Shown: positions 3,267 through 56,600, numbered from the stretch's first letter. The stretch is 64,000 bases of DNA from an uncultured Gammaproteobacteria bacterium (GCA_965231005.1 OZ246405.1:39204-103203), one strand, 5' to 3'. A program made the numbers and translations. Notes: generated by a model not told the origin, from the sequence alone.

Positions 3267-5267
3267 AATTATCCCATCAATCGCCTTAAGAATCTTTTCT
3301 CCAGTAACAACATCTGTTGCTTCAACACGAACTTTTGAACTAAGCTGTGTTTGCCCAGCATTTACTTTGTGAAGTTTTACTTTAAACTGATATGCAAGCA
3401 CATCAAGCTCTGTTGGCATGGTTGGAATTGTCCAAATCAATTTATTTTTTTGTTCATCAACAGTAACTTTTCCAGCAGGAGGAACAAGTGTTGTTTTTTC
3501 ATCAAAACTTACATCTCCAAAAAAGTCAGCACTAATGTTCAAATCTTTAAGTTCATGAAAACTATTATTCAAGAGCCATGTCACTGTGTACATTTTTTGA
3601 TCATTTGGTTCTTTTTTCACATCTGCTCGAACTTCGAGTGAAAGGTCTGACTGAATAGTAAGACCTATGCTATTACTTGAAATAATTTCCTTTTTCGACC
3701 CGAGGTCGACCAGCCTCTGGCTGGCATCCACCTCACCATCGTACTGAACATCACCAAAAATCTTTCCTGTCCATGTTTCAAATGCTGCCAAGTCTGTTAC
3801 ATCACTTGTTTTTACTGGCAACTGAACATCAATAACAACAGACTCCCCTGGCGCAATACTTGCCAATTCTTTTACTTGTCGTTTATCCCATGTAATTTCT
3901 CCACGACGTGTTGTATCATCAAGTTGTTCACCACGGATGGTTCCATCTGCTGGATCTTCTACCTTTGCCCAATGTAAAATACTTTTCTTTTTGATCGATG
4001 GCGCATCAAATACAAGACGAACTTTTGCATTTTTTAATGTTGCTTCTCCAGCATTTTTTGTGACAACACTTACATTCAATTTTTCACCTGGCTCTACTGA
4101 AAGATCACCAACACTTCCATTGATAATGACAGTGGAGACAATTGTTGTTTCTACAAGTTTTAGATCAATAGATTCTTCTGCCAAGACAAATGCATCATCT
4201 ATCCCCTGTCCTTTTGCAATACCAAGAACTTTAGTTTTAAATGAAATCTCTTTTGCACCTTCTTCTGAGTCAAAACTTCCAACAATATTTACTTTAAACT
4301 CTTCATCAAAATCTTTTGTTGTCCATTGCAGCTCGTCTAAAGAATCACTTTCAGGAGTACTACTCTTTTTTGTAAAGACTTCTTCTCCTTCTACAACAAC
4401 TGCAATTCGTTCAATTGAATCTGGAAATCCATCTTCCTTTTTTACGCTTACAGTAAATGGCACGTCAGATCCTTGTGGGACTTCTTTTGGAATACCTATA
4501 GTAAAGGAAATTGGAGAATCAGTTGCTTTTGTATTTAGACTTGTTACTTTTTGAAATTCAGAACTAAAGTTTTCTGGGAAGTAATTTAAGAATACACGCA
4601 CTGATTGTGATTCTCCAAGACTTCCATGAAATGATCCAAAAATATCAATAATACCACCTTCGTCTGATTTGATTTCACCAAGATCCCATTTGTCTTTTGT
4701 ATTGTTGCTCGGCTCTACACTTGCACGATCAAACACAAATCCAGCAGGATAACGAACTTGCAATGTTGCATTGTTCAAAGAAATAGATTGTGTATTTCTG
4801 TATCGAATGCGATACTGCACTTCATCTCCTGCAACAACCTGCTCTTCTCCTGACACAGAAAGAATAACATCTTCTTCTGAAAATTTAGATGGTGACTGCA
4901 GCACAAAAAAACCAACCCATGCGACTGCACCAAGAAATACTAATGCAACAAAGAGAGTTAATAGTGCGCGAAATGTTCCTCTCCCTTTTCTTTTTTTAAA
5001 CTTTGTCATATCTGGCATGGATCCATCACTGTTCTCATAAATTTCTGTCAATTCTTTTTCAATCTTTTTTGAATACTCTTTTCGAGACAATGTTGCTTTT
5101 GAGCGTGACCGTGATGGTGTTTTTTTTGAAGCAGTCTTTGGTCTTTTTATTGTCTTTTTCTTAATTGAAGACCGTGAAGACGTAGGAGATAATTTCTTCT
5201 CTGTAAATGTTTTTCGGCTTCCAGAAGACTTCTTTGCTTTGCCTGTACTCTTCTTTTTTTCTGGCAT
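3258..5267 (-). CDS. membrane-anchored surface protein: Lys/Ser-rich basic N-terminal tail, one TM, large extracellular domain
   Basis: 669 aa; cytoplasmic K/R/S-rich 100 aa; hydrophobic segment ALLTLFVALVFLGAVAWVGFFVL; no recognisable catalytic motif. Confidence 0.55.
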   Translation of the reverse strand: MPEKKKSTGKAKKSSGSRKTFTEKKLSPTSSRSSIKKKTIKRPKTASKKTPSRSRSKATLSRKEYSKKIEKELTEIYENSDGSMPDMTKFKKRKGRGTFRALLTLFVALVFLGAVAWVGFFVLQSPSKFSEEDVILSVSGEEQVVAGDEVQYRIRYRNTQSISLNNATLQVRYPAGFVFDRASVEPSNNTKDKWDLGEIKSDEGGIIDIFGSFHGSLGESQSVRVFLNYFPENFSSEFQKVTSLNTKATDSPISFTIGIPKEVPQGSDVPFTVSVKKEDGFPDSIERIAVVVEGEEVFTKKSSTPESDSLDELQWTTKDFDEEFKVNIVGSFDSEEGAKEISFKTKVLGIAKGQGIDDAFVLAEESIDLKLVETTIVSTVIINGSVGDLSVEPGEKLNVSVVTKNAGEATLKNAKVRLVFDAPSIKKKSILHWAKVEDPADGTIRGEQLDDTTRRGEITWDKRQVKELASIAPGESVVIDVQLPVKTSDVTDLAAFETWTGKIFGDVQYDGEVDASQRLVDLGSKKEIISSNSIGLTIQSDLSLEVRADVKKEPNDQKMYTVTWLLNNSFHELKDLNISADFFGDVSFDEKTTLVPPAGKVTVDEQKNKLIWTIPTMPTELDVLAYQFKVKLHKVNAGQTQLSSKVRVEATDVVTGEKILKAIDGIILE

Positions 5268-5512: not shown

Positions 5513-8055
5513 TTTTTTTCCATAACAACACCAAGCACCTGGTCTTCATGAAGCGTTGTAGTAAACAGTGCCCCATTTACAGCAAGCTGTATGTCACCCC
5601 GAGATCGCCAAACTGGCTGCCACCCATCTGGATACACAATTTGGGAATGAAATGCACTATTGATTCCTGACTGTTTTTGAATAAACAAACTATACCTGCT
5701 TCCATGCCGCTGAGCATCTCCAAAAAATATGTCTCTCCACTTTTCTTGTGTTGTTAACTCTGCTTCTTCTTGCTCCATTTTTACTTGCATTGGAAGTTTA
5801 TAAACAAATGTCACCTCACTTGTTTCTCCAGGAAGAACACTCATCCAATTTCCAAACGTTGTTTTGCCAAATTGTTCTGACACACGCGTACCACTTTGTG
5901 CATGGATTCCTTTTTCTTTTTCAAAATCAGCCAAATGTGGATCTTGTCTATACCATTCTTCTGGAACTTTAAAGACATCTTCTGGCGGATAGGTAAATCC
6001 ATTTGCATCAAGAAGTTCAGACCCTTTTGGAACATATACACGAATATAATCTATATTTGGTCCACCATAAAATTGTTCCCCTGCCACACCAGTGTGTGTT
6101 CGTTTTATATTCACTGTATTGATGATTGATCCATCGTCCATAACTTGTGCTTGGTGTGTAATATCTTGTTCAATTTTTGCATCTGACTTTTGACCACCAA
6201 TATTTGTATTCACAACCATAAGATAATCTTGTGTTGGTGCTGTTTCAACAATTTCACCTGTCCATCCAAAAGATCGAATTTCTTTTTGTAACTCATTATC
6301 AATAAACGATGCTTGTATTTCTTTTTGTTGTGCAGCAGTATGTATTTCTGACAAGAGCCGAATTGCAGAAACAGCATCAATTTCTTTCATTCCTTCAAGG
6401 AGTTGTTCAAGCATGCTTGCAACAACTGCTTTTGGTTTATTTTCTTCTTTATCATAATTCAATTCAACTTCTTCTTGAACTGTCTGAAGTACATTGTCTG
6501 CATCGACGAGCAAATCAAATTCTTCATTTTCCATAGGACCAACAACACGAAGGAATCGTTCTAAAACTGATGCATTAATTGCAATGACTCCATCGACGGT
6601 TGCTCCTCTACCATGCTGATAAAACCATGCCATTTTTTCTGCCGAAGCAGCAAAATCTGGAAACCAATTACTATCTTGAAATTCCCAACGTCCATTTACT
6701 ACTTGTAATGGCTCTGGTGGTTCTACAAATACATTGAGTTGCCCTTTGATATCGTATGTGCCTCCTCCTGGGACTTCAATATTCATAATTTTTCCTTTTT
6801 GAACATCAACAACAGCAAAGCTTCCTAAAAATCCACCAGTTGCACGAAGTTCATGATTGTTCTGGAACATAACAAGGTATCGCTTTAATCCGTCAGCACC
6901 GAAAACCTTATTAATAACATCGACAAGGTCTGCTAAGTCACCCATGTCACTAATAAACGCAGCAAATAATAATTTAAACTCTTCAAATGCATCCTGATAT
7001 TCTGTAGGAAGAGAAGATGATTCAACATGTTGGAGATCTTCAAGTGCAAGTCGGTATTGTGGGACAGAAGCTTGTAAATGATCTTGAATAATATTGAATC
7101 GATCGGTCATATTCAAATCATCATCTTCACTTGCAGCACTCACGCCTTTTACTAAATAGGTATTACCCAATGCCAAATGATGGCCAGCACTGAGTACATG
7201 TTGTCGAGACCGAACTTGTTTTCCAATAACAGGTAGCATACTTGCTACAAAGCCTAATATTTGATGTTCTTGATCGACAAAAGACTGCGCTTCATTGAAT
7301 GATCCAAGTGCACTATTCAAGTCAAATTGTGCTTGGGCAATATTTGCCTGAAGAGCAGCGAGTGTTGAAGACTGAAGAGAAAGAAACGCATTGGTGCTTT
7401 GCTCTACCAGTTCAGCACTGTCTTGTCGAACCTTTTTATAATATCCAAATGCAGGAAATGGTAGGCTTCCAATCAACACAAGAATAACAAAAGAGGCAAT
7501 AAAACGTCGAACAGTAAATCCTTGGACAAACTGTTGTGCTCGGTTGTCTACGGCATTGAATGCACCATTCCATTTTTGTTTTACAGATGAGGCAACAGTG
7601 CGATGAAATGTTATTCGACGTCGTGCTTTTTTTACAACAATACGATCGTCTCTTTGTAAAATTGGTTGAGATACCACTCCTTGTGTTTGTTGTTTTCTAA
7701 CCATATTTCGAAGCTGAACAACCTCTTGCTCAAGACGTTCGATTTTTGTTTTCTGATTTGCTTTGCGAACCATGCTTGCCAAATCAATTCCCTCTCGGAT
7801 TGGAGCAACTTTTTCATATGCTTCTCGAAATGCTTTTACGCGCTCTGGCGCGACCTTCTTTTCTGGGCGCAAATCAACAATATGTGGTGATTGTTTTTTA
7901 TCGTGGCAAACATGAACAACGACAGATGGTTTTGTCGTTCTTTTTTTCCTCTTTTTGACATGAGGAGTACTATTGAGCGATGCTCGTTTACATGTCCGTT
8001 TTGTGTGTCCAGGACGTCTGCAAACTGAGCATTTTCGCTGCTTTTTTTCTGCCAT
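5509..8055 (-). CDS. DUF4012 domain protein with N-terminal zinc-ribbon-like CxxC...C and one TM
   Basis: 848 aa; HNHELRATGGFLGSFAVVDV block characteristic of DUF4012; CSVCRRPGHTKRTC near the N-terminus; adjacent to the GT4 cluster. Confidence 0.6.
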   Translation of the reverse strand: MAEKKQRKCSVCRRPGHTKRTCKRASLNSTPHVKKRKKRTTKPSVVVHVCHDKKQSPHIVDLRPEKKVAPERVKAFREAYEKVAPIREGIDLASMVRKANQKTKIERLEQEVVQLRNMVRKQQTQGVVSQPILQRDDRIVVKKARRRITFHRTVASSVKQKWNGAFNAVDNRAQQFVQGFTVRRFIASFVILVLIGSLPFPAFGYYKKVRQDSAELVEQSTNAFLSLQSSTLAALQANIAQAQFDLNSALGSFNEAQSFVDQEHQILGFVASMLPVIGKQVRSRQHVLSAGHHLALGNTYLVKGVSAASEDDDLNMTDRFNIIQDHLQASVPQYRLALEDLQHVESSSLPTEYQDAFEEFKLLFAAFISDMGDLADLVDVINKVFGADGLKRYLVMFQNNHELRATGGFLGSFAVVDVQKGKIMNIEVPGGGTYDIKGQLNVFVEPPEPLQVVNGRWEFQDSNWFPDFAASAEKMAWFYQHGRGATVDGVIAINASVLERFLRVVGPMENEEFDLLVDADNVLQTVQEEVELNYDKEENKPKAVVASMLEQLLEGMKEIDAVSAIRLLSEIHTAAQQKEIQASFIDNELQKEIRSFGWTGEIVETAPTQDYLMVVNTNIGGQKSDAKIEQDITHQAQVMDDGSIINTVNIKRTHTGVAGEQFYGGPNIDYIRVYVPKGSELLDANGFTYPPEDVFKVPEEWYRQDPHLADFEKEKGIHAQSGTRVSEQFGKTTFGNWMSVLPGETSEVTFVYKLPMQVKMEQEEAELTTQEKWRDIFFGDAQRHGSRYSLFIQKQSGINSAFHSQIVYPDGWQPVWRSRGDIQLAVNGALFTTTLHEDQVLGVVMEKN

Positions 8056-14267: not shown

Positions 14268-14672
14268 GTCTTGTTCATTACAGATGATCGATTTGGCCTC
14301 TGGCCAGATAGGAAAGTCCGAACTCTTCTCAATTTTATTGAGGTCGTGGAAGTGGGTAACACCCACCCACTGCATTGTGAAATGTATGTGAGGGACAGTG
14401 CCGCAGAGACAATACTAGTCCCGTCGCTCGTGAGCGACAGGACAAAAGGTGAAAAGTGTATAGAGGTTTTTGATCTCGAGTCAAAAGTTACTATACTCTA
14501 TCCTGTGGTGACACAGGTTAGTGGTAAACCCTTCCTAGAGAAAGAGCAGCGTTTTCCGTTTACGGGATTCGAAAAGTTAGCTCGTTACAGGTGTTTGGTA
14601 ACAAACATCGCAGAGAAATGATCATCACCCGCAAGGGTACAAAATTCGGCTTACGTAGTGGACAAGACAACA
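14268..14672 (+). ncRNA. rnpB: RNase P RNA (bacterial type A)
   Basis: P4 strands AGGAAAGTCCGAAC and ACAAAATTCGGCTTA show compensatory CCGAA/TTCGG changes relative to the E. coli GUCCGGGC/CCCGGCUUA. GGTAACACCCACC and CAGTGCCGCAGAGACAA match conserved RNase P blocks. P1 pairing GTCTTGTTCATTAC with GTAGTGGACAAGAC. Confidence 0.75.
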
Positions 14673-15595: not shown

Positions 15596-16390
15596 TTAAT
15601 CCAAAAAATAATCCTTTTCAAGCTGCTGCACTACAGAGCCTGGTATAGTTTTTTCTAGTGAAAGTGGACTATCTCTGTGATAAAACACCTCCACAAAAAT
15701 TTCTAAAGCATCAGAGGTTCTTTCAATCTTCTCTTCACCCTCAACAGCCTCCCCCATTTCAAATAACTGCTCACTAGACTCACTTCTATCTGGATCTGTT
15801 GCTCGAGTTTGAAGTAATTCTGCAAAGGCAGAACGGACAGATTGCAAAAACTCTGGAGTGCGCAAATCATCTACTAATTTTTCTTTTCTTTCTGATGCAT
15901 CTTTTTTCATCTTATCAACATATTCTTTTGGCATTGCCTGAAAAGCAACTGCATATTCAGATTTTGGCTCACTTGAGCTAACCGCATCTATGGCAGCCTC
16001 CATTCCATGCTTGTCACGCATATGAAAAGCACCCAATTCATTACCAACACCATGACTGTCAGTTGTAATACCATGCATCCCCATAACAGCCATGATTGTA
16101 TTCTCTTCTGCGCGAGTTAAATCTCTACCTGGCGTGTTTGCGATCGCTTGTAAAAGTTCAGCAGATCTTTCACTGCTAAATTCTGGCTTGTCAGACCCCT
16201 GCTCCCAGGACAATGGATTTTCAACCAGCCACTGAACATGTCCTAAAACTCTGCCTGCTTCTCCAAAAGCTGCGGCCTCGTCTGGTTCTAAATTTTTAGG
16301 CATGAAAGGACCAGCTTTTAGAACTTTTTCATATATTCCCTCACTTGTCTCTTCCTGAGGAGGATGATGCCTGTCTCTTTTACTATCCAT
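15596..16390 (-). CDS. hypothetical protein (acidic, 264 aa) in the GC-atypical island
   Basis: ORF only. Confidence 0.4.
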   Translation of the reverse strand: MDSKRDRHHPPQEETSEGIYEKVLKAGPFMPKNLEPDEAAAFGEAGRVLGHVQWLVENPLSWEQGSDKPEFSSERSAELLQAIANTPGRDLTRAEENTIMAVMGMHGITTDSHGVGNELGAFHMRDKHGMEAAIDAVSSSEPKSEYAVAFQAMPKEYVDKMKKDASERKEKLVDDLRTPEFLQSVRSAFAELLQTRATDPDRSESSEQLFEMGEAVEGEEKIERTSDALEIFVEVFYHRDSPLSLEKTIPGSVVQQLEKDYFLD

Positions 16391-16548
16391 ATTAAAATTT
16401 TGTTATTATTAAAATGTAGTGTAAAGCTTTTTCAAATAAAAGACAAATTTGAATTTAAGATCAAAAAAACTCGTCTTCGCCATAGGCTACGCCGAGTAAA
16501 CTCTTTCATTCGATAAATCCTCTTGTAGAGTTTACTTGGCGGAGTCCT

Positions 16549-16612
16549 GCCTGCCGGTCCGATGCGCAAGCGATACGGACTCCGTACCTTGCGTCGGAGC
16601 AGGCAGGCCGAA
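16549..16612. repeat. split or degenerate copy of the GC palindrome: CCTGCCTGCCGG + 41-bp imperfect palindrome + GCAGGCAGG
   Basis: Halves of CCTGCCTGCCGGCAGGCAGG separated by tccgatgcgcaagcgatacggactccgtaccttgcgtcgga. Confidence 0.45.
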
Positions 16613-16744
16613 GGACGTAGACAAGTTCTTTTGATCTATCCCGAGCCGCACAGTTGCAGAGCTTTCGTCCGGAGGGACGATCGTTGCAGGGTAGTACGAG
16701 TCGGGTGACAGGCATATATGACAAGAACATTTGAGGAGGGTATT

Positions 16745-17149
16745 CTAGGACAGCCTAGGCTTGAGTCCATTTGTAACAGCGATCCGAAACAGATCTGCAC
16801 GAGTACTAACACCCAGACGTCTACTGATCTCCCTTGAATGTGATTCGACTGTCCGGTGGCTCACACCAAGAATTTCTCCTACTTCGCCACACGTATGACC
16901 ACTAATGATCCATGACAAAACTTCGAGCTGTCGTTTTGTCAGAGACTTGAGAGGACCTCTAGCAACAATCTGTGACATAGGACCTGAAGCAGGCTGAACT
17001 ACTCTGCTGGCGAACCTGAGTGACACACCACCAGATCTATTTCTTGAAACCTCAATTGAGAGAATAACCTTCTGACCTTCTTCCGGAATATCCAGCTCAA
17101 AGGAGTCAGCAGCGACTTTCACAGAAATTGTCTTTGTTTTAGGAGCCAT
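16745..17149 (-). CDS. LuxR/GerE-family HTH transcriptional regulator
   Basis: C-terminal LTKRQLEVLSWIISGHTCGEVGEILGVSHRTVESHSREISRRLGV is a LuxR-type HTH; GC ~50%. Confidence 0.7.
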   Translation of the reverse strand: MAPKTKTISVKVAADSFELDIPEEGQKVILSIEVSRNRSGGVSLRFASRVVQPASGPMSQIVARGPLKSLTKRQLEVLSWIISGHTCGEVGEILGVSHRTVESHSREISRRLGVSTRADLFRIAVTNGLKPRLS

Positions 17150-17205
17150 GCTACCTCCTTGTTCTTGTGTAGCCTGTTTATATCAGCAAACGCTTAGTTT
17201 GTCAA

Positions 17206-17232
17206 TTCAAAAACCCGGCTTTTCACCGGGTC
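17206..17232 (-). terminator. intrinsic terminator (CCCGGTG-aaaa-GCCGGG then T5 on the minus strand)
   Basis: The reverse complement reads cccggtgaaaagccgggttttt. Confidence 0.5.
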
Positions 17233-17239
17233 TTTTCTG

Positions 17240-17328
17240 TGCTCAGGAGAGGACTTGAACCTCCACAGGAAAAAATTCCCACAAGGCCCTCAACCTTGCG
17301 CGCCTGCCTGCCGGCAGGCAGGTCTACC
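17240..17328 (-). pseudogene. 3' portion of a degenerate tRNA-Leu(GAG) paralog (D-loop GGTAGAC to acceptor end), interrupted by the 20-bp GC palindrome
   Basis: Minus strand reads GGTAGAC-[CCTGCCTGCCGGCAGGCAGG]-CGCGC AAGG TTGAGGG CCTTG ... GGAGGTTCAAGTCCTCTCC TGAGCA. The T-arm and anticodon loop are identical to the intact tRNA-Leu at 18199-18285. Confidence 0.5.
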
Positions 17329-17574
17329 AAATCTGTTTAATAAAGTTATTTTTATCCATTCCTTCCCTGATCCAGACTTTAGATATTTCTCCCGTTTTCT
17401 AGCTTCAATTCTTGTCGAATATTTTTCGTAATATATCAAAAGAAAAGGTCTGTAAAAACGTGTCACTCTTTCTTTTCCACGCTCATGTTCTAAAACCCGT
17501 CGCTCAAGGTCATTCGTTAGACCAACATAAATATAATTCTTTTGAAGACTTTTTAATACATACACATGGTACAT
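17290..17574 (-). CDS. GIY-YIG nuclease family protein
   Basis: YVYVLKS...YIYVGLTNDLERRVLEH GIY-YIG motif. The last ~8 codons (PACRQAGAQG) are encoded by the GC palindrome and tRNA fragment. Confidence 0.7.
   Translation of the reverse strand: MYHVYVLKSLQKNYIYVGLTNDLERRVLEHERGKERVTRFYRPFLLIYYEKYSTRIEARKREKYLKSGSGKEWIKITLLNRFGRPACRQAGAQG
17303..17322. repeat. perfect 20-bp palindrome CCTGCCTGCCGGCAGGCAGG (copy 1)
   Basis: Exact self-complementary 20-mer. Identical copies at 18312-18331 and 52500-52519. Confidence 0.8.
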
Positions 17575-17627
17575 ATTCCACTCCTTAATTCACTGTGCGG
17601 AGTTAAGGACCAGATTGCAACCTTAAT

Positions 17628-18197
17628 CTACTTTTCAACCTGATAACCATGCAGGAGAGGACGATCCGGTCGAGGGATGAGCCATTTAATATTTGTCTTT
17701 TGTAGCCTTATCGCTCGTATTTCTTCCAAAGAACTCCATGCAGTAAGCAATTGGTCTGATGCTCCTTCCACGTATAATCCAAAGATGTATGAATGATCTG
17801 CAAGAGCTCCAAGCCTAGTAACCATTGCAGTAGAAATCTGATCCGAGCAAGTGTCTTTCGTTTTTCCACCAAGACTCACAAGTCCACTACCAGACTCTTC
17901 TCCAGAATAACTAAGTCCAGTTATATTTAAATCAAAATCTCTACAGAGTATTGTAAAAAATTCCGAATGTGAAGAAAGTGATTTGTTCAGTGCTATCCCA
18001 GCCCTAAGAGTAGTCCCGATACTATCACCAGAAGCGTCTTGTATCTCTTTCCTCATCTCCTCGATCGCTTCTTTATCTTGATCTGCTATTGACTGAGGTT
18101 CAACTGAGAAAATGGCACATCCAGACAAAAAGAAAATAACTAAAATAAGGCCGCAAAGAGCAGTAACAGATGAAATTTTCTTGGCTTGTAATAACAT
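17628..18197 (-). CDS. putative lipoprotein
   Basis: Signal peptide with lipobox LSGCAI; 189 aa; start codon directly abuts the tRNA-Leu 3' end. Confidence 0.5.
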   Translation of the reverse strand: MLLQAKKISSVTALCGLILVIFFLSGCAIFSVEPQSIADQDKEAIEEMRKEIQDASGDSIGTTLRAGIALNKSLSSHSEFFTILCRDFDLNITGLSYSGEESGSGLVSLGGKTKDTCSDQISTAMVTRLGALADHSYIFGLYVEGASDQLLTAWSSLEEIRAIRLQKTNIKWLIPRPDRPLLHGYQVEK

Positions 18198-18198
18198 G

Positions 18199-18285
18199 TG
18201 CGCAGGAGAGGACTTGAACCTCCACCCTGTATAACCAGGACCAGGCCCTCAACCTGGCGCGTCTACCGATTCCGCCACCTGCGCG
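18199..18285 (-). tRNA. tRNA-Leu (anticodon GAG), class II with long variable arm
   Basis: The minus strand reads GCGCAGG TG GCGG AATCGGTAGA CGCG CCAGG TTGAGGG CCTGG TCCTGGTTATACAGGGT GGAGG TTCAAGT CCTCT CCTGCGC A. All four stems pair. No encoded CCA. Confidence 0.85.
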
Positions 18286-18306
18286 TGTTTTGAATATTTT
18301 TTATTT

Positions 18307-18384
18307 TTAAATGTTGCGCGCCTGCCTGCCGGCAGGCAGGTCTACCAATGGAGTTTACCTGCCGGAGCTTTAGCGTAGGCAGGC
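18307..18384 (-). pseudogene. 5' portion of the degenerate tRNA-Leu paralog (acceptor GCTCAGG through the D-arm), containing two GC-palindrome-type insertions
   Basis: The minus strand reads GCTCAGG TG GC[CTGCCTACGCTAAAGCTCCGGCAGG]TAAACTCCATT GGTAGAC[CCTGCCTGCCGGCAGGCAGG]CGCGC. Acceptor GCTCAGG is complementary to CCTGAGC at 17241-17247. Confidence 0.45.
18312..18331. repeat. perfect 20-bp palindrome CCTGCCTGCCGGCAGGCAGG (copy 2); part of the 31-bp direct repeat GGTAGAC-palindrome-CGCGC shared with 17298-17328
   Basis: Exact match. Confidence 0.8.
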
Positions 18385-18389
18385 CACCT

Positions 18390-18496
18390 GAGCATATCTA
18401 GAAATTAAAAATTGGAAATCAGGGGTTAGGGAATACTGACAGTAATATCTTATTTAGTTCCCTAATTTCTAGTTTCTAGTTTCCAGTTTCCAATTT
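18390..18496. repeat. inverted pair of TAGTTTCC-family 8-mer arrays (GAAATTAAAAATTGGAAATCAGGGGTTAGGGAA ... TTCCCTAATTTC TAGTTTC TAGTTTCC AGTTTCC AATTTC) around a 24-bp core
   Basis: Read directly; left arm is the reverse complement orientation of the right arm. Confidence 0.6.
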
Positions 18497-18502
18497 CAAT
18501 TT

Positions 18503-19282
18503 TTAAAATCTTCTTCCCTTTCCAACAATCATCTTAATTCTACTCTTTGCCAATTTTATTGTAATCTTTGTTTCTTTTGATTCCTTTCCATCGGCCTGCA
18601 CAACAAAGGGTTTTGTGCTACTTACAATCATTTCTTCAAATGGGAACACACTTGGATCTTCGTATACTGGACGAATAATTTTCTTTCCAAGTACTGGACG
18701 TAAAAACGCTTCTAACTTTCCATCTTGCGGATGAACTGTTACACGATCCTGCTTTCTCATTCCTCTCCATTCAAATGGCTGTAAGTTACACACAACCAAT
18801 TCAATTTTTGCACCTTGTCGTGCCGATACTTTAAACCGTTCATCGTACTGCACAGTCACATCACTTGCAGGAATATGCAGACGAGAAATAAAATATCTAT
18901 TATTGAACCAACCTACATCTAACTTTACTTTTCTTCTTCGTGAAAGAACATCACATGCTTCTACACCAACTGGAATACCAAGCACATCTGCGATTGAGTT
19001 ATCCGATCCTATAGGGAGAAAACCAAAGAGCGTATCGCAAATTGCTGCGCGAGAAAGAACATGACCAAAGGTCTCATCATTTCCAACAATCACAATAGCG
19101 GTCGCGCCACGTTTTATTTCTTCCTCTACAATTGCATGTGCATTTGTATAGTTTTGAAGTCGGATTATTTTACCAGCAATACCAAAGTCTGTCAACCGTG
19201 TCTCCATGGTCTTAATGGTACTTGCAAACTTTTTTTGCTTTAAAAAGTTGTCGTATAAATATACGTACATAATAGATAACAA
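18503..19282 (-). CDS. diacylglycerol kinase catalytic-domain (YegS/DagK-like) lipid kinase
   Basis: IVIVGNDETFGHV and LPIGSDNSIADVLGIP motifs of the DAGK_cat / NAD-kinase-like fold. Confidence 0.6.
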   Translation of the reverse strand: MLSIMYVYLYDNFLKQKKFASTIKTMETRLTDFGIAGKIIRLQNYTNAHAIVEEEIKRGATAIVIVGNDETFGHVLSRAAICDTLFGFLPIGSDNSIADVLGIPVGVEACDVLSRRRKVKLDVGWFNNRYFISRLHIPASDVTVQYDERFKVSARQGAKIELVVCNLQPFEWRGMRKQDRVTVHPQDGKLEAFLRPVLGKKIIRPVYEDPSVFPFEEMIVSSTKPFVVQADGKESKETKITIKLAKSRIKMIVGKGRRF

Positions 19283-52404: not shown

Positions 52405-52651
52405 TCAGAAATTAGAAATTGGAAATTAGGGATCAAACTAGGAACAACTATATAGTACACAGATTACCAAGATAAAAACAGATTTACCAGGATCTGATCC
52501 CTGCCTGCCGGCAGGCAGGTGTGAAAATCCTGGTCGATCCTGGAAATCTGTGTACTATTTAATCGAAACTAGATAATATATAATTCGAAAATTTAAACTA
52601 AAACAACCTAATTTACTTCCCCAATTTCTAGTTTCTAATTTTTAATTTCCT
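52405..52651. mobile_element. compound nested palindromic element: outer arms are TAGTTTCC-type 8-mer arrays, inner arms CAGATTTACCAGGATC/GATCCTGGAAATCTG, centre is the perfect GC palindrome CCTGCCTGCCGGCAGGCAGG (52500-52519)
   Basis: Left arm CAGAAATTAGAAATTGGAAATTAGGGATC; right arm CCCAATTTCTAGTTTCTAATTTTTAATTTCC; additional pair GTACACAGAT/ATCTGTGTAC. Confidence 0.55.
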
Positions 52652-53134
52652 TCTTATATATGGATGCCAATAATGAACAAAAATTACTCCCAATACTATC
52701 CAGAGAAACATGTGCCAAATATCAGTGTGCCCATGAAGATTTAAAGCATTTTCACTATAGTCCCAAAGTCTTCTTCCAAAGAACCATAATCCAATAATTC
52801 CACCAATGTATTCAACAATTGTGAAAATAATTCCTGGCATAATTTCACGAAAAAACGCTGGAAACTTTTCTATAAGAGGCTGAGCTATTATTACAGCAAC
52901 TGCTCCACATCCATAAATAAGTGCAAACGGAACATACACTCCAAACGATATTGCCGCGCCCCCAAATACAAATTCCATTGGTCCTAAGCTCCAAATTGCA
53001 GAATCAATAAACCAACCAATAAATCCGTAAATAAAGAAAAAATAGATAAGAGATTTATAATATTTTTTTTGTTTTTTATTCATAGCAATAATCAAATAAT
53101 AACACAACATCGCCGTTTTGGCGATGTTGTTCAA
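52628..53134 (-). CDS. hypothetical polytopic membrane protein
   Basis: 4-5 TM helices. Confidence 0.45.
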   Translation of the reverse strand: MNNIAKTAMLCYYLIIAMNKKQKKYYKSLIYFFFIYGFIGWFIDSAIWSLGPMEFVFGGAAISFGVYVPFALIYGCGAVAVIIAQPLIEKFPAFFREIMPGIIFTIVEYIGGIIGLWFFGRRLWDYSENALNLHGHTDIWHMFLWIVLGVIFVHYWHPYIRRKLKIRN

Positions 53135-53578: not shown

Positions 53579-53628
53579 TGAGAGCTTTTAAGGCCTTTTA
53601 AGCTTTTATAGCCTTTACGGCATTTTCT
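53579..53628. repeat. 9-bp periodic array (GAGCTTTT AAGGCCTTTT AAGCTTTT ATAGCCTTT ACGGCATTTT)
   Basis: Read directly; abuts the stop of the 1742-aa gene. Confidence 0.6.
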
Positions 53629-56600
53629 AGAACCAGTCCATTGCTTTTGTAACAAACATAAATGAGTTTGCAAGGGACTTCATAATCTTGAAGAATTGTG
53701 ATACTCCTGGTGTTTCGTCAAATGGAATACTTGAACCAAGAGAACTGAAACTTGTATTTACAGAAGAATCACTATTTGATGCACAGGAGCTTGATTCATA
53801 ACTGCTCCAGCAATATCCATTACACCATCCATAACCAGCACCAGTACAGTCTGATTCTGTGTAACAATAGTTGTAATTTGATGAACAATCTGTTGATGTC
53901 CACTGAGAACTGTCACCATTAGAAGAACTACTGCCAGAATTAGAGCCGCAGGAGCTTGATTCATAACTGCTCCAGCAATATCCATTACACCAACCATAGC
54001 CAGCACCAGTACAGTCTGATTCTGTGTAACAATAGTTGTAATTTGATGAACAATCACCAGATCCAAAAGTATTACTATCTGATCCACTACCACAGTCATT
54101 TGGACAACTTCCACTGCTCTCTCCTGATTCACAAGTTCCATCATTATCACATGCTGAAGAATATGAGTCTGACGATGTATATGAGCCTTCCTGACAGCCA
54201 GTTGGACAACCATTGTCATCCCACTTACACCACTTGTCAGATGAACTTCCGTATTTACAATCATCACAAGAATTTGGTGAGCTACATGTCACTCCTGCTT
54301 TTACACAGGAACCTGTTTGACTGTTGTACTCCCAGCCATCCCATTCACTACATGAAGTGGACCAACTATCCCCTGTTGAACCTGAACTAGTAGATCCTGA
54401 TGATGAACCAGATGAATCTGAACCTGAGCTGTGAGATCCAGATGTTGAACTTCCGCACCCCGTTGCACAGCCACTACTATCCCAAACACATCCATCAGCA
54501 CATAAAGTTGAGTCACAAATTTTATCACCAGTAAAATTATTATATTGATTCAACTTACATGCAGGAGGTGCCTTACAATCTTTTGGACAATTTTCAACTG
54601 TCTCCCCATCGTCACATGTAAAGTTGTAGTTACATGGATCCTTTGGCGGTTCTTCTACAGGTGGGACATAATCTTTGTACTTACATCCTTCAGAACTAAA
54701 CCATTTACATGATGACTGTGCAAAACATGAAGAGTCTGTTGAGTAATCATCACAGTTTACAGTGGTTGGATCTGGCGTCGTGCTTGTTTCAGATGGACAA
54801 TTATCTTCATGATAATTTGATCCGTTTGTTAGATAGCCAGGATAGTTATAATCACATTTTTTCTCATTATTTAACTGACAATATCGCACGCCTGCGCTAT
54901 CCCATCTACTGTACGCAAATCCTGGACACGAATCTTTATCACCTTCATATACTCCACCAGAACAGTCTGCATAACAAGATTCTTTTGTTTCTCCATTATC
55001 ACATGTGCCATTTCCACAAGAATTTCCTGAAGAATAATCCTGACAACCAGTTGGACAACCATTGTCATCCCACTTACATGTAAGACCAGAAGAAGATCCA
55101 TATTTACAACTGTCACAGGATTTTGGTGCACTACAGGTCACACCTTTTGTAATACATGATTCTGTTTCTTTATTATATTCAAACTTCTCACCACAAGAAG
55201 GTGTGCCACTACAATCACTACAACTATCATATGTTTCTCCTGAATCGCAAGAACCATTATAGTTACAACTACCATTTTCTACAAAGTCCTGAGGACAGTT
55301 TGTTGCATCATAGTTACTTCCATTTGTTAAATAACTTGGATAATTGTAATCACACTTGAATTCAGTATTTAGCTGACAATATCTTTTACCAGCTTTATCC
55401 CATTTACTATATGCAAATCCAGGGCAGGAATTCTCATCACCTTCATATTCAGTCTTCTTACAATCAGAAGCACATGTGTCTAATTCTCCTGGAGAGCAGA
55501 TATTATCTCCACAAACATAGTCGCTAGCCCCTCCTGTACAATTAGGTATACCAAATGTTTTCCAGTTTTTATCATTACCAGCATCTGGCATCCAATAAAA
55601 TTCTGATTTTACAATTTTTTTACACTCTGCTGCAATACCAACAATATAACTGTTGTATTCACTGTCAGTTCTATCTAGAATATATGACGATTCAGAATCA
55701 CCATCGTAGAAATACCATGTATATTTTACCCACGTAGGTTTGTCATCTTTTTTCTCTACTAAAATAACATCAAAATGATCTTTACACGCTTGAATCATTT
55801 TTTCTCCAGCATCAGTTCCTCTTGCTTCACAATGTGCTACACCCTCTTCATTTGAATACACTGTTATTCCATCTGGGAATGTGTATCTAAATGGATCTGG
55901 TTTTATTTCTTCATCTTTTTCACATCTATCTGGAATGGAACAACCTTTCTCATCAGTAGTATATACAGTATGTGTTCCTTCAGGACAATACAACATGGTT
56001 GTATAATTACATACCACTTCTTCTTTAATACATTCTCCAGGAATCCAACAGCCATTGTCACTTTTAACTGGCTCACGATAAAAACCAGGAGCACAAGGAG
56101 CTACATAATATTCTGGACAAGCTAAAATTTCTTTTTCTTCACATTTTTGAGTTTTAAAATTGTAATACTTTCCATATCCACAATCATAGTCCTTTGGTTC
56201 ACATTTGTTTAAATGATCATCATAGTAAAAACCATCATCACAATGCTTATAATCAAATGGAACACAGTCACGAGCTTTTTCATCCCATCGATATCCTTGT
56301 TTACAATCTATTGAAGTTGTTTTATGGCATTCTGGAGGATAAATAAACTTTGCTTCTGCTTCATCATAATATCCTTCACATTTGTCTTTTTGATCTGGGA
56401 CACAGTAAGAAAGATCATAATCCCAGTGCATTCCCCAACCACAATTTTTAAACTCTACTGGTGGAACATAATATGGATCTTTTACACATTGTTTTATTTT
56501 TGCATCATAGTAATGTCCAGGTTGACAATCTATAAGAAAATCATCATACGTGACACAATAGCCTAGTCCATAATCCCAGTACCCTGGTGGCTGACATTCA

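Follow-up and report, generated by a model that had tools for sequence, protein, structure and literature searches.

The window, by which we mean the whole 64,000-nucleotide stretch of DNA that we analyzed, contains a compound locus at a tRNA gene. Read along the minus strand, it comprises, in this order, a 5' fragment of a tRNA-Leu gene, an intact tRNA-Leu(GAG), a lipoprotein-type ORF, a GIY-YIG nuclease gene, a 3' fragment of a tRNA-Leu gene, and a terminator-like hairpin. Two direct repeats bracket the genes, and the neighbors outside the repeats are LuxR-type, DAGK, and bactofilin genes. The G+C content of the window is 37%. The features are listed here with the basis for each in parentheses:

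18393-18314, minus strand: 5' tRNA-Leu(GAG) fragment, tRNA positions 1 to ~28, acceptor strand GCTCAGG (sequence, joining test)
18382-18347, minus strand: 36-nt insert in the D-loop of the 5' fragment (sequence, DNA fold)
18340-18321: palindrome copy 1, CCTGCCTGCCGGCAGGCAGG, between GGTAGA and CGC at tRNA position 23 (exact-copy count)
18314-18348: direct repeat copy 1, 35 nt, exact, made up of TTGGTAGA, the palindrome, and CGCGCAA (repeat alignment)
18285-18313, minus strand: AT-rich spacer of 29 nt between the 5' fragment and the intact tRNA (sequence)
18284-18198, minus strand: intact, foldable tRNA-Leu(GAG), the working copy (ARAGORN, Rfam, comparison with relatives)
17628-18197, minus strand: lipoprotein-type ORF, 189 amino acids, an ORFan (ORF call, family and protein searches)
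17574-17290, minus strand: GIY-YIG nuclease gene, 94 amino acids (Pfam PF01541, family alignment, AlphaFold, Foldseek)
17330-17240, minus strand: 3' tRNA-Leu(GAG) fragment, from position ~16 to the end and including the discriminator A, acceptor strand CCTGAGC (sequence, joining test)
17322-17303: palindrome copy 2, at tRNA position 23 of the 3' fragment (exact-copy count)
17296-17330: direct repeat copy 2, 35 nt, exact (repeat alignment)
17232-17209, minus strand: terminator-like hairpin with a T-run, directly after the 3' fragment (sequence, alignment to the AgrB-like terminator hairpin in Rfam)
52500-52519: palindrome copy 3, exact and solitary (exact-copy count; DNA fold, z = -7.45)
16546-16607, minus strand: palindrome copy 4, split by a nested imperfect palindrome (sequence)

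An earlier note, made from the sequence alone, had described an intact tRNA nested between the halves of a degenerate paralog, together with lipoprotein and GIY-YIG genes. This arrangement is present, with slightly corrected coordinates. The 5' part, which had been placed at 18384-18307 with the locus ending at 18390, is indeed a tRNA fragment, but it lies at 18393-18314 and reaches 3 nt beyond 18390. The 3' part lies at 17330-17240 instead of 17328-17240, and ARAGORN places the intact tRNA-Leu(GAG) at 18284-18198 instead of 18285-18199. The direct repeats had been described as 31 nt long; they are exact on re-alignment, but the exact match extends to 35 nt (17296-17330 and 18314-18348). Two independent metagenome assemblies match the locus with 0 mismatches, one over 2285 nt (the whole compound locus) and the other over 1664 nt (from the 3' end of the DAGK gene into the LuxR-type gene), so we rejected misassembly.

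The tRNA-Leu(GAG) at 18198-18284 (minus strand) is the sole tRNA that ARAGORN calls in the 64-kb window. Its Rfam score is 54 bits, its acceptor stem is formed by GCGCAGG with CCTGCGC, and its variable arm is unusual. Within 16300-18600, ARAGORN and Rfam did not find a group I intron, any other RNA family, or a tmRNA.

The 5' fragment consists of GCTCAGGTGGC, the 36-nt insert, GGTAGA, the 20-nt palindrome, and CGCGCAA, in that order. The 3' fragment consists of TTGGTAGA, the palindrome, CGCGCAAGG, the GAG anticodon loop, the variable arm, the T arm, CCTGAGC, and A. The hairpin at 17209-17232 is where the ancestral tRNA gene would have ended; a terminator scan scored this hairpin on the plus strand only. 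The 36-nt insert has palindrome-like arms (CCTGCC...GGCAGG) around 14 nt, followed by TAAACTCCATT, and it has GGCCTGCCT...CGGCAGG...TAAACTC in common with a structured region at 16465-16745. Once the fragments are joined and both inserts are removed, ARAGORN calls a tRNA-Leu(GAG); if either insert is kept, a default run of ARAGORN gives no call. So besides the one tRNA that is called directly, the pieces that the earlier note took for tRNA halves do join into a valid tRNA-Leu(GAG).

The acceptor strands of the two fragments are complementary to each other (GCTCAGG with CCTGAGC), and their differences from the intact gene (GCGCAGG/CCTGCGC) are compensatory. Also, both fragments have A28 while the intact gene has C. 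Judging from these sequences, the fragments are halves of one tRNA-Leu(GAG) lineage that is distinct from the intact copy. The fragments are more similar than the working copy is to the tRNA-Leu(GAG) of two related loci (0.84 versus 0.76 for L012 and 0.81 versus 0.75 for L021), and the variable arm of the 3' fragment is similar to that of L021, a relative from the Peribacteria. By this sequence comparison, the fragments look ancestral. The lineage's original tRNA-Leu(GAG) is left only as 5' and 3' remnants, each broken at position 23 by the palindrome, and the working tRNA-Leu(GAG) is a divergent copy that lies between the remnants with the ORFan lipoprotein gene and the nuclease gene.

Both fragments carry the perfect 20-nt palindrome, CCTGCCTGCCGGCAGGCAGG, at the junction of the D-loop and the D-stem. 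The window contains 3 exact copies, compared to 0.00 expected from shuffled sequences. Copy 3 lies at the apex of a ~105-nt imperfect hairpin (~52452-52558) between two co-directional genes. Copy 4 is interrupted, 1 nt from its centre, by a nested imperfect palindrome of 42 nt and lies within a structured, GC-rich non-coding stretch. Beyond the window, we found the palindrome in over 120 metagenome contigs, and its sequence is unchanged from Patescibacteria to Bacteroidota, Nitrospira, and Planctomycetes. About 90% of the metagenome copies are solitary and distant from any tRNA or GIY-YIG gene. An adapter or linker artefact is ruled out by mutated variants of the palindrome, by its presence in an isolate genome, and by conserved syntenic contexts from many projects.

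Within tRNA fragments, the palindrome is a precise 20-bp insertion, with no target duplication, at about six discrete positions (14/15, 22/23, 31/32, 39, 65-69, and 77). It is never found inside complete (working) tRNAs. The flanks match the end of the palindrome at 4 or more of 6 positions in 62% of tRNA-associated copies versus 7% of controls, which suggests microhomology, with the caveat that these counts are drawn from few site classes, which makes the copies non-independent. As the earlier note had proposed in part, the palindrome behaves like a GC-rich element that is dispersed and mobile-looking; that it specifically invades D-loops does not hold, given the other tRNA positions. We rejected the idea that the palindrome generally lies at the apex of existing hairpins, as the duplex energy of the 25-nt flanks is like that of random positions (p = 0.34). 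Some copies are placed in this way, such as the one at 52.5 kb in the window.

The 94-amino-acid ORF matches Pfam's GIY-YIG family (PF01541) at residues 1-70 with E = 3.2e-15 (56.6 bits, with a cut-off of 22.6 bits), which bears out its identification in the earlier note, and no other domain was detected. An AAGGAG ribosome-binding site lies upstream of the gene. The protein is a catalytic core alone (roughly residues 1-80): it lacks a C-terminal DNA-binding domain of the SegB or I-TevI type, and it scores just 18 bits against NCBIfam's group I intron endonuclease model, whose cut-off is 56. In an alignment of 23 homologs, Y5, Y16, R26, H30, and E62 are invariant. The AlphaFold model (pLDDT 84) has structural matches by Foldseek to UPF0213 (1zg2), to Slx1, and to the catalytic domain of I-TevI, and the nearest solved sequence is the UPF0213 protein 1ywl (E = 1.7e-6). 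Because the catalytic residues are invariant and the modelled fold is like that of UPF0213 and of the structure-selective nuclease Slx1, the nuclease looks to be active. The UPF0213 proteins (EF2693, BH0048, and YazA) and the Slx1 domain are the closest solved sequences and folds, but sequence similarity to UPF0213 is only ~30-40%, and UPF0213 has no reported tie to tRNA genes or to the palindrome. As had been noticed before, the last codons of the nuclease gene are supplied by the palindrome: its final 12 codons run through the tRNA fragment and the palindrome. Since homologs are usually 77-83 amino acids long and residues 83-94 are predicted to be disordered, this palindrome-encoded tail is most likely accidental read-through.

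The start of the 189-amino-acid ORF abuts the tRNA's 3' end, and its product has a lipoprotein-type signal peptide with the lipobox LSGC. It does not belong to any family in Pfam or NCBIfam and has no match but itself among 5.8 billion proteins. The lipoprotein and the nuclease are the only ORFs between the repeats; as previously reported, there is no integrase at the locus.

We surveyed 80 loci of other species, each encoding a nuclease closely related to this one; these were picked by similarity to the query, which may partly explain the missing taxonomic structure and the restriction to tRNA-Leu. At 73 of the 80 loci, a complete tRNA-Leu lies within 130 nt on the same strand, either downstream (54 loci) or upstream (19 loci) of the nuclease gene, with all five anticodons represented. 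The nuclease gene and the tRNA always point in the same direction. At 61 of these 73 loci, the palindrome lies beyond the nuclease gene, that is, away from the working tRNA, within 200 nt and in a partial tRNA copy (48 are exact). Partial tRNA copies, detected without the palindrome, are present at 52/55 type-A loci and 18/21 type-B loci. The cassette takes the form of a tRNA fragment with the palindrome, the GIY-YIG gene, and a complete tRNA, or the mirror image of this. Most of the related loci have only one kind of tRNA fragment, and 14 have fragments on both sides, like the window. These results show that the locus in the window is a variant of a recurrent cassette with a minimal GIY-YIG gene (a core of ~78 amino acids), a tRNA-Leu, and a partial tRNA duplicate that is broken by the palindrome. 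The earlier note had read the locus as an insertion or recombination event, with a GIY-YIG gene inside a tRNA gene that resembles the footprint of a homing endonuclease or an integrative element. An insertion or recombination scar at a tRNA gene is supported, and the nuclease is the relevant actor, but this is not a unique case of a gene inside a tRNA.

Some loci contain tandem units of fragment, palindrome, and GIY-YIG gene that are 92-100% identical to each other, and pseudogenised copies of the cassette are present as well. The same logic is seen at tRNAs for Asn, Ser, Lys, Arg, Val, and Ala. The hosts are mainly Patescibacteria and Bacteroidota. The identity of the nucleases between phyla is as high as 0.73-0.74, versus 0.61-0.72 between syntenic relatives; identities are flat at ~0.62 over the whole set, and the phylogeny does not separate vertical from horizontal descent.

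The order bactofilin, DAGK, cassette, tRNA-Leu(GAG) is kept in five relatives (L038, L012, L006, L024, and L011), which have a GIY-YIG gene where the window has the 29-nt spacer (18285-18313). At this syntenic site, L012 and L038 have fragments on both sides, and the 5' fragment of L012 has the same acceptor strand, and the same junction of palindrome and CGCGCAA, as the window does. Neither exact-protein look-ups of the flanking genes nor the five syntenic relatives (all occupied) revealed empty-site alleles or presence/absence polymorphism; in the look-ups, the DAGK protein as called has no record, and the LuxR protein was found in the same arrangement only. Phages and plasmids carry distant relatives only: the best matches are 42% identical in IMG/VR and ~40% identical in GenBank phages, with one match to yazA on a Bacillus plasmid. 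In our full-text literature searches, we found neither the palindrome nor a GIY-YIG/tRNA-Leu cassette described. The arrangement spans many bacterial phyla and looks like an undescribed selfish genetic element.

Among the closest known systems are the Ssn nucleases, represented by SsnA of Neisseria meningitidis (CDD cd10448) with its NTS/SRM hairpin repeats (Chenal et al. 2025, PMC11893778). These are single-domain proteins of 94 amino acids that bind a cognate hairpin repeat flanking their own gene (PMC11893778). In both systems, a single-domain GIY-YIG protein of ~80-95 amino acids lacks a DNA-binding domain, and a short inverted repeat able to form a hairpin flanks its gene and is dispersed in genomes at mostly intergenic sites. 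The IS-like layout of repeat, gene, and repeat is also shared. On the other hand, the cassette's repeat is a perfect 20-bp palindrome and has no oriented flanks. The SRM consensus, HGTCWYN(0-2)YYVSBRHN(0-5)WNVSBRGN(0-2)RNCYNB, was found in 0 of 91 neighborhoods of the nuclease genes, with 0.3 expected by chance, and the palindrome with its flanks does not match this consensus on either strand. Also, the cassette gene is tied to tRNA genes and partial tRNA duplicates (the word "tRNA" occurs 0 times in PMC11893778), and the host range, mainly Patescibacteria and Bacteroidota, differs.

Another similar system is SegB of T-even phages, which cuts the DNA of tRNA genes and drives tandem amplification of tRNA-segB (PMC13096335). 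As in the cassette, a GIY-YIG gene lies beside tRNA genes, and recombination in the tRNA-nuclease region yields tandem repeats of tRNA plus nuclease. In contrast to SegB, which is phage-borne, has two domains including a DNA-binding part, and has neither a palindrome nor a standing partial tRNA duplicate, the proteins we describe are bare catalytic domains encoded on bacterial chromosomes, and their best phage relatives are ~40% identical.

We favor the interpretation, at a probability of roughly 55%, that the locus is a homing-type selfish cassette, in which a minimal nuclease would act with its cognate hairpin and tRNA sequence would serve for recombination. By analogy to the Ssn nucleases, the nuclease, a bare catalytic domain with a predicted Slx1/UPF0213-like fold, would recognize the palindrome as a hairpin and cut nearby DNA. 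It may also cut tRNA-Leu DNA, as the D-loop GGYAGA and the anticodon-stem TCTGCC mimic the ends of the palindrome. The breaks would be repaired by recombination between tRNA sequences, and this repair would duplicate part of the tRNA, leave one copy intact, and sometimes amplify the unit in tandem. Near-universal tRNA sequence could then act as portable homology arms that give access to other tRNA-Leu genes and to other genomes. The palindrome would keep the tRNA remnant dead, and it would also shorten an uninterrupted direct repeat that might otherwise be open to clean excision. Excision between the 35-nt repeats would delete the sole working tRNA-Leu(GAG) seen at the locus, which would make the cassette hard to lose.

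In this interpretation, movement and cleavage are inferred. In its favor are the association with tRNA-Leu, the partial tRNA copies, the palindrome on the far side of the nuclease gene and its clean insertion at discrete tRNA positions, the synteny, the ancestral look of the window's fragments, the tandem units, the occurrence at other tRNAs, the invariant catalytic residues and predicted fold of the nuclease, the Ssn and SegB precedents, the identity across phyla, and the microhomology. Several observations point against a homing cassette. The SRM is absent, and most copies of the palindrome are distant from GIY-YIG genes; since a hydrolytic nuclease is unable on its own to transpose DNA, homing leaves the spread of those copies unaccounted for. 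The search of phages and plasmids turned up no close relatives, and so no vector. Finally, no empty sites were found, and since all five syntenic relatives are occupied, the cassette could be an old resident that has been kept vertically.

A more ambitious version, which we put forward tentatively and with considerable doubt, is that a 78-amino-acid nuclease and a 20-bp perfect palindrome make up a minimal mobile system able to cross from one phylum to another. Hairpins would be where the nuclease cuts, and the palindrome would spread as a free-standing unit, inserting precisely and leaving no target duplication. As its two strands are identical, the palindrome would be free of orientation. 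The nuclease gene would travel with tRNA genes as universal homology arms, with part of the tRNA being duplicated so that the host survives, and the host's tRNA would sometimes be replaced by an imported one, which appears to be the case in the window.

An alternative that we consider unlikely is that the nuclease and hairpin are a resident system that serves the host, such as a domesticated Ssn-like pair that limits recombination or transformation and does not move between genomes. The pair would be kept beside tRNA-Leu for the sake of expression, and the tRNA fragments would be by-products of local recombination provoked by the nuclease. Six related genomes, with 62-73% identity between their DAGK proteins, use the same syntenic site, and the constant co-orientation with the tRNA and the failure to find empty sites also fit a resident. 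There is a precedent in that SsnA of Neisseria has been proposed to modulate transformation, and so not to be purely selfish (PMC11893778). However, a resident system does not easily account for the occupation of five tRNA-Leu isoacceptors and other tRNAs, for mirror-image forms, or for copies that are pseudogenised or tandemly amplified. The distribution across phyla is also patchy, with identity across phyla as high as within the lineage.

It is rather improbable that the locus combines two unrelated things, an ordinary free-standing homing endonuclease that acts on tRNA-Leu DNA and an independent REP-like palindrome. The palindrome would be spread by other machinery and would gather in dead tRNA copies because it is harmless there. 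This would suit the ~90% of palindrome copies that are solitary and far from GIY-YIG genes, the near lack of consensus in the flanks of those solitary copies, and the nesting of the palindrome in other palindromes. Viewed from the nuclease side, however, the link is tight, with the exact 20-mer within 250 nt of 65 of the 91 gene copies. Furthermore, it is invariably the fragment side that has the palindrome, other neutral DNA near these genes does not collect it, and classical GIY-YIG homing endonucleases need a DNA-binding domain, which this nuclease does not have. The cassette can also be compared to REP/BIME elements and RAYT: both involve dispersed, nested, GC-rich palindromes in an AT-rich genome and one small nuclease gene flanked by the repeat. 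But RAYT is an HUH/Y1 transposase instead of a hydrolytic GIY-YIG nuclease, and REPs are species-specific whereas the cassette's repeat is identical across phyla. AT-rich organelle genomes contain GC-rich palindromic clusters, which are similar to the dispersed nested palindromes here.

Mechanisms based on an integrase, an intron, or a split tRNA are not supported. The footprint of an integrase-type integrative element or prophage, with the tRNA gene as the attachment site and the 35-nt repeats as attL and attR, is largely refuted and very improbable. The direct repeats are derived from a tRNA and bracket foreign-looking genes, and such elements classically duplicate part of a tRNA, leaving a working tRNA and a displaced partial copy as a direct repeat. 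But the insert is only ~1 kb (and the cargo of the cassettes is ~0.3-1 kb), there is no integrase or recombinase between the repeats (lipoprotein and GIY-YIG) or beside them (LuxR and DAGK), and the recurring partner in the 80 loci is the GIY-YIG gene. Moreover, the repeat is centred on a D-loop with an inserted palindrome instead of on the tRNA's 3' end, the duplicated part can be the 5' or the 3' one, and the displaced copy always carries the palindrome. It is scarcely credible that the tRNA is split or contains an intron and is reassembled at the RNA level, with the palindrome joining halves from separate precursors or one long precursor as in Nanoarchaeum: the acceptor strands of the halves are complementary, and the halves share the self-pairing 20-mer at the same position, but the extra 36-nt insert destroys the D arm of the 5' half, the halves are separated by an intact tRNA that has their anticodon, most related loci have one fragment kind only and so have no pair to join, and there is no Rfam intron match even at E ≤ 10. 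We know of no bacterial enzyme set for joining split tRNA halves.

If the homing interpretation is correct, then bacterial selfish DNA can exploit tRNA genes with no need of an integrase, intron, or transposase. The cassette occurs in lineages whose mobile elements are poorly known, such as Patescibacteria, and also in a cultured Flavobacterium that could be used for experiments; a homolog of the nuclease (locus L027) comes from Flavobacterium cheonanense JCM 17069. It would also provide a candidate pair of a tiny nuclease and a defined 20-nt hairpin, of the sort that has been sought for single-stranded-DNA tools after Ssn. With its own tRNA-Leu(GAG) in pieces and a divergent copy at work, the locus hints at how working tRNA genes come to be replaced. 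These repeats are also a problem for annotation, as tRNA-like fragments lie next to real tRNAs, and gene callers extend ORFs through the palindrome, which gives rise to the recurrent peptides GRPACRQAG and LPAGRQA. They are a problem for assembly as well: several contigs end at these repeats.

Beyond the single tRNA-Leu locus of the window, a nuclease clade, an invariant 20-bp palindrome, and a partial tRNA duplication go together across phyla. The window's locus has the following parts, where the palindrome is the perfect 20-mer CCTGCCTGCCGGCAGGCAGG:

18393-18314, minus strand: 5' tRNA-Leu-like fragment, made up of GCTCAGGTGGC, a 36-nt insert, GGTAGA, the palindrome, and CGCGCAA
between the 5' fragment and the intact tRNA, minus-strand reading: AT-rich spacer of 29 nt
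18284-18198, minus strand: intact tRNA-Leu(GAG), identified by ARAGORN and Rfam
18197-17628, minus strand: 189-aa ORF with a lipoprotein signal
17574-17290, minus strand: 94-aa GIY-YIG ORF, identified with Pfam
17330-17240, minus strand: 3' tRNA fragment, made up of TTGGTAGA, the palindrome, CGCGCAAGG, a GAG anticodon loop, a variable arm, a T arm, and CCTGAGCA
17232-17209, minus strand: terminator-like hairpin, directly after the 3' fragment in minus-strand order

The earlier note had described a compound tRNA-Leu locus here. We found all of its parts again, and the locus is real and unusual, so that reading was roughly correct. The direct repeat, given as 31 nt, is exact but extends to 35 nt; both fragments are present, but the 5' fragment begins at 18393, beyond the end that the note gave. 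The intact tRNA is the only tRNA that ARAGORN and Rfam call in the region. When the fragments are joined and both inserts are removed, ARAGORN accepts the product as tRNA-Leu(GAG). Also, the acceptor strands of the two fragments pair with each other, and the compensatory 3:70 pair and position 28 set both fragments apart from the intact gene, which indicates that the fragments belong together. An identical locus is present in two independent metagenome assemblies, so it is not a misassembly. The window contains three copies of the 20-mer, as compared to zero expected. A search of 5.8 billion proteins gave no relative of the lipoprotein-like ORF, whose start codon abuts the 3' end of the tRNA, with no visible ribosome-binding site.

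The 94-aa protein matches the GIY-YIG family in Pfam (3.2e-15), as the note had proposed. The catalytic Tyr, Tyr, Arg, His, and Glu are invariant in an alignment of 23 sequences. The closest solved sequences are UPF0213 proteins, and the closest folds are UPF0213, the nuclease domain of Slx1, and the catalytic domain of I-TevI; no DNA-binding domain was found in the window's nuclease. Its homologs are mostly 77-83 amino acids long. In the AlphaFold model, residues 1-80 are confident and residues 83-94 are disordered; this tail corresponds to the tRNA fragment and the palindrome, so it is probably accidental read-through. Many homologous ORF calls have N- or C-terminal extensions (such as GGIGRPACRQAGA, LPAGRQAR, AELVDA, or VAEWQTR), which are the tRNA D arm and then the palindrome, translated in different frames. 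We therefore suspected a general association and fetched the genomic contexts. Gene callers often run small ORFs on through tRNA fragments and palindrome (proteins P0005, P0008, P0012, P0039, P0070, and others), and GRPACRQAG, LPAGRQAR, AELVDA, and VAEWQTR recur as artefactual peptides. Several contigs terminate within repeats.

A family-alignment scan of one genome per species gave at least 542 loci, and we analyzed the best 80. These are from Patescibacteria, Omnitrophota, Bacteroidota, Ignavibacteriota, Planctomycetota, Nitrospirota, and others. In 73 of the 80, a complete tRNA-Leu lies within 130 nt of the nuclease gene on the same strand. All five anticodons were seen (CAA 35, GAG 20, TAG 7, TAA 6, and CAG 5). 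Of the seven exceptions, most lie at a contig end or have extra fragments between the nuclease gene and the tRNA. The complete tRNA is downstream of the nuclease gene in 54 loci (type A) and upstream in 19 (type B). In type A, a 5' fragment of the same tRNA (positions 1 to ~30-45, with the palindrome) is followed by the nuclease gene, 7-40 nt, and the complete tRNA. In type B, the complete tRNA, often with a terminator, is followed by the nuclease gene, a 3' fragment with the palindrome, and a duplicated terminator. Searching without the palindrome, we found the fragment upstream in 52/55 type-A loci and downstream in 18/21 type-B loci, with fragments on both sides in 14 loci. The palindrome is on the fragment side in 61/73 loci, allowing up to 3 mismatches, and is exact in 48. 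Several loci have two tandem units of fragment, palindrome, and nuclease gene, and the two copies compared per locus are 92-100% identical; locus L013 has more copies, partly degraded.

One of these best 80 loci (of at least 542) is from an isolate, Flavobacterium cheonanense JCM 17069 (L027, NZ_BAABCT010000011.1), which is a possible experimental system. It has a type-B cassette with an exact palindrome and, on the opposite strand, two more regions that match the query nuclease (4825-5034 and 5643-5852).

To see the palindrome without bias, we scanned metagenome contigs for the exact 20-mer. Across at least 120 contigs, about 90% of copies are solitary, intergenic, and far from tRNA or GIY-YIG genes, and about 10% are within tRNA fragments. 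These fragments include tRNA-Asn, -Ser, -Lys, -Arg, -Val, and -Ala, several of them with a GIY-YIG gene in the same arrangement. At seven such metagenome loci (L126, L132, L134, L155, L161, L117, and L176), a palindrome-bearing partial tRNA lies beside a complete one, often with a GIY-YIG gene, at the same six kinds of tRNA; some of the fragments are unlike the neighboring complete tRNA, as in the window. Many solitary copies, among the matches listed, are within AT-rich periodic repeats similar to those in the window.

Comparing fragments to their intact neighbors, the palindrome is a clean 20-bp insertion, without duplication or deletion, at tRNA positions 14/15, 22/23, 31/32, 39, 65-69, or 77. 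It was never inside a complete tRNA, either in cassette loci or among the listed metagenome matches. Around solitary copies there is almost no flanking consensus, which suggests that the unit consists of the 20 bp alone. The palindrome also nests: in the window, one copy is split by a 42-nt palindrome (16546-16607), and relatives have variants with small central insertions. When we tested whether it targets the tips of pre-existing hairpins, the overall result was negative. The tRNA-Leu insertion sites adjoin mimics of the palindrome's ends (GGYAGA in the D loop resembles GGCAGG, and TCTGCC in the anticodon stem resembles CCTGCC). At least 4 of 6 positions match in 62% of tRNA-associated copies versus 7% of controls, with a small effective n because the copies fall in few site classes. 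Some variants (such as CCTGTCTGCCGATAGGTAGA and CCTGTCTACCGACAGGTAGA) join one arm of the palindrome to the D-loop motif GGTAGA, which suggests slippage between the two sequences. Such variants are in T loops of fragments in L012 (3130-3290), L014, and L027 (downstream fragments in the latter two); in L012, the related variant CCTGCCTGCCGATAGGTAGA is in tandem between two palindrome copies.

Five loci (L038, L012, L006, L024, and L011) share an upstream bactofilin and DAGK-like kinase with the window (62-73% identity to the window's kinase). All five have the cassette at the following tRNA-Leu(GAG) in the type-A arrangement, in which the 5' fragment and the complete tRNA flank the nuclease gene. 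In L012 and L038, a 3' fragment with the palindrome lies downstream as well, so compound loci are not restricted to the window. The working tRNA of L012 has the acceptor strand GCTCAGG, and its 5' fragment ends in GGTAGA, palindrome, and CGCGCAA, identically to the window's. The relatives' tRNA-Leu(GAG) is nearer to the window's reconstructed fragment-tRNA than to its working copy. We conclude from these comparisons that the fragments are probably the remains of the lineage's original gene and that the working tRNA, with its unusual variable arm, is probably a replacement. The window's nuclease gene is downstream (type B), and the 29-nt spacer is where the relatives have their nuclease gene. 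A rearrangement, or a cassette exchange, between the two palindrome-bearing repeats may have produced this difference.

We have high confidence in this description of the locus and the cassette: the architecture and its recurrence, the precise insertion of the palindrome, the tandem amplification, the conserved catalytic residues, and the synteny are all directly observed. As to its nature, we consider it somewhat better than an even bet (roughly 0.55) that the cassette is a selfish homing-type element. This reading is guided by two precedents. Ssn nucleases are 94-aa single-domain GIY-YIG proteins whose genes are flanked by a hairpin repeat; in single-stranded DNA, they bind this cognate repeat and cut next to it (PMC11893778). 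SegB, a free-standing GIY-YIG endonuclease of T-even phages, cuts the DNA of tRNA genes and, through recombination, drives the tandem amplification of a tRNA-segB unit (PMC13096335). By analogy, repair of a break in or near a tRNA-Leu gene could use a cassette-bearing copy as the template, with tRNA sequence providing homology on both sides. The part of the tRNA duplicated during repair would decide between type A and type B, and one tRNA would be left intact. Cutting of the donor's own tRNA would give tandem arrays. In this proposal, the nuclease would recognize the palindrome as a hairpin; the palindrome would also keep the tRNA remnant dead and shorten the direct repeat that allows clean excision. 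In the window, recombination between the 35-nt repeats would remove the only working tRNA-Leu(GAG) seen at the locus, which is also the only tRNA within the 64 kb. One weak point is that homing does not account for the spread of a 20-bp unit by a hydrolytic nuclease.

A further weak point is that no empty site was found. Since all six related genomes carry an occupied site, a domesticated resident system is the main alternative. No vector for the cassette was identified on phages or plasmids. The nuclease identities are flat, at ~0.62 across the set with cross-phylum pairs up to 0.73-0.74, so they do not separate vertical from horizontal descent. Possibly, an ordinary homing endonuclease coincides with an unrelated REP-like repeat, but the palindrome's tight placement on the fragment side is hard to reconcile with this. 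An integrase-type island scar at a tRNA gene fails, as there is no recombinase at the locus. A split or spliced tRNA also fails, because the 5' half carries additional damage, the locus has an intact tRNA with that anticodon, and fragments of just one kind are found at most related loci.

A full-text literature search found no mention of the palindrome or of a GIY-YIG/tRNA-Leu cassette. The Ssn paper does not mention tRNA (PMC11893778), and the 2006 survey of GIY-YIG proteins does not mention tRNA-gene neighborhoods. Unlike Ssn repeats, the palindrome does not match the published Ssn consensus. Given this mismatch and the lack of a published description, we place the cassette near both nuclease-hairpin pairs and free-standing homing endonucleases at tRNA genes, as a confirmed member of neither.

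Just downstream of a LuxR-type gene, a GC-rich non-coding stretch of ~280 nt (16465-16745, minus strand) folds far better than shuffled sequences (RNA MFE -108.5 kcal/mol, z = -6.4) and has no match in Rfam. It holds the palindrome copy that is split by the nested palindrome, and its GGCCTGCCT...CGGCAGG...TAAACTC also occurs in the 36-nt insert of the 5' tRNA fragment. The stretch may be a structured RNA of an unknown type or a cluster of nested palindromic elements. The third exact palindrome is at the apex of a ~105-nt imperfect hairpin (52452-52558, DNA fold z = -7.45), which lies between two co-directional genes and looks MITE-like. Both this hairpin and the tRNA locus are flanked by AT-rich periodic inverted repeats, GAAATTAGAAATTGGAAATTAGGGA ... 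TCCC..ATTTC...TTTCTAATTT (18391-18418 / 18487-18514 and ~52405-52435 / 52620-52655). The window also encodes a 1742-aa predicted secreted protein, Cys-rich and repeat-rich and unrelated to the tRNA locus (53627-58855, minus strand), and a class A bacterial RNase P RNA (14272-14668, plus strand; Rfam, 151.5 bits).
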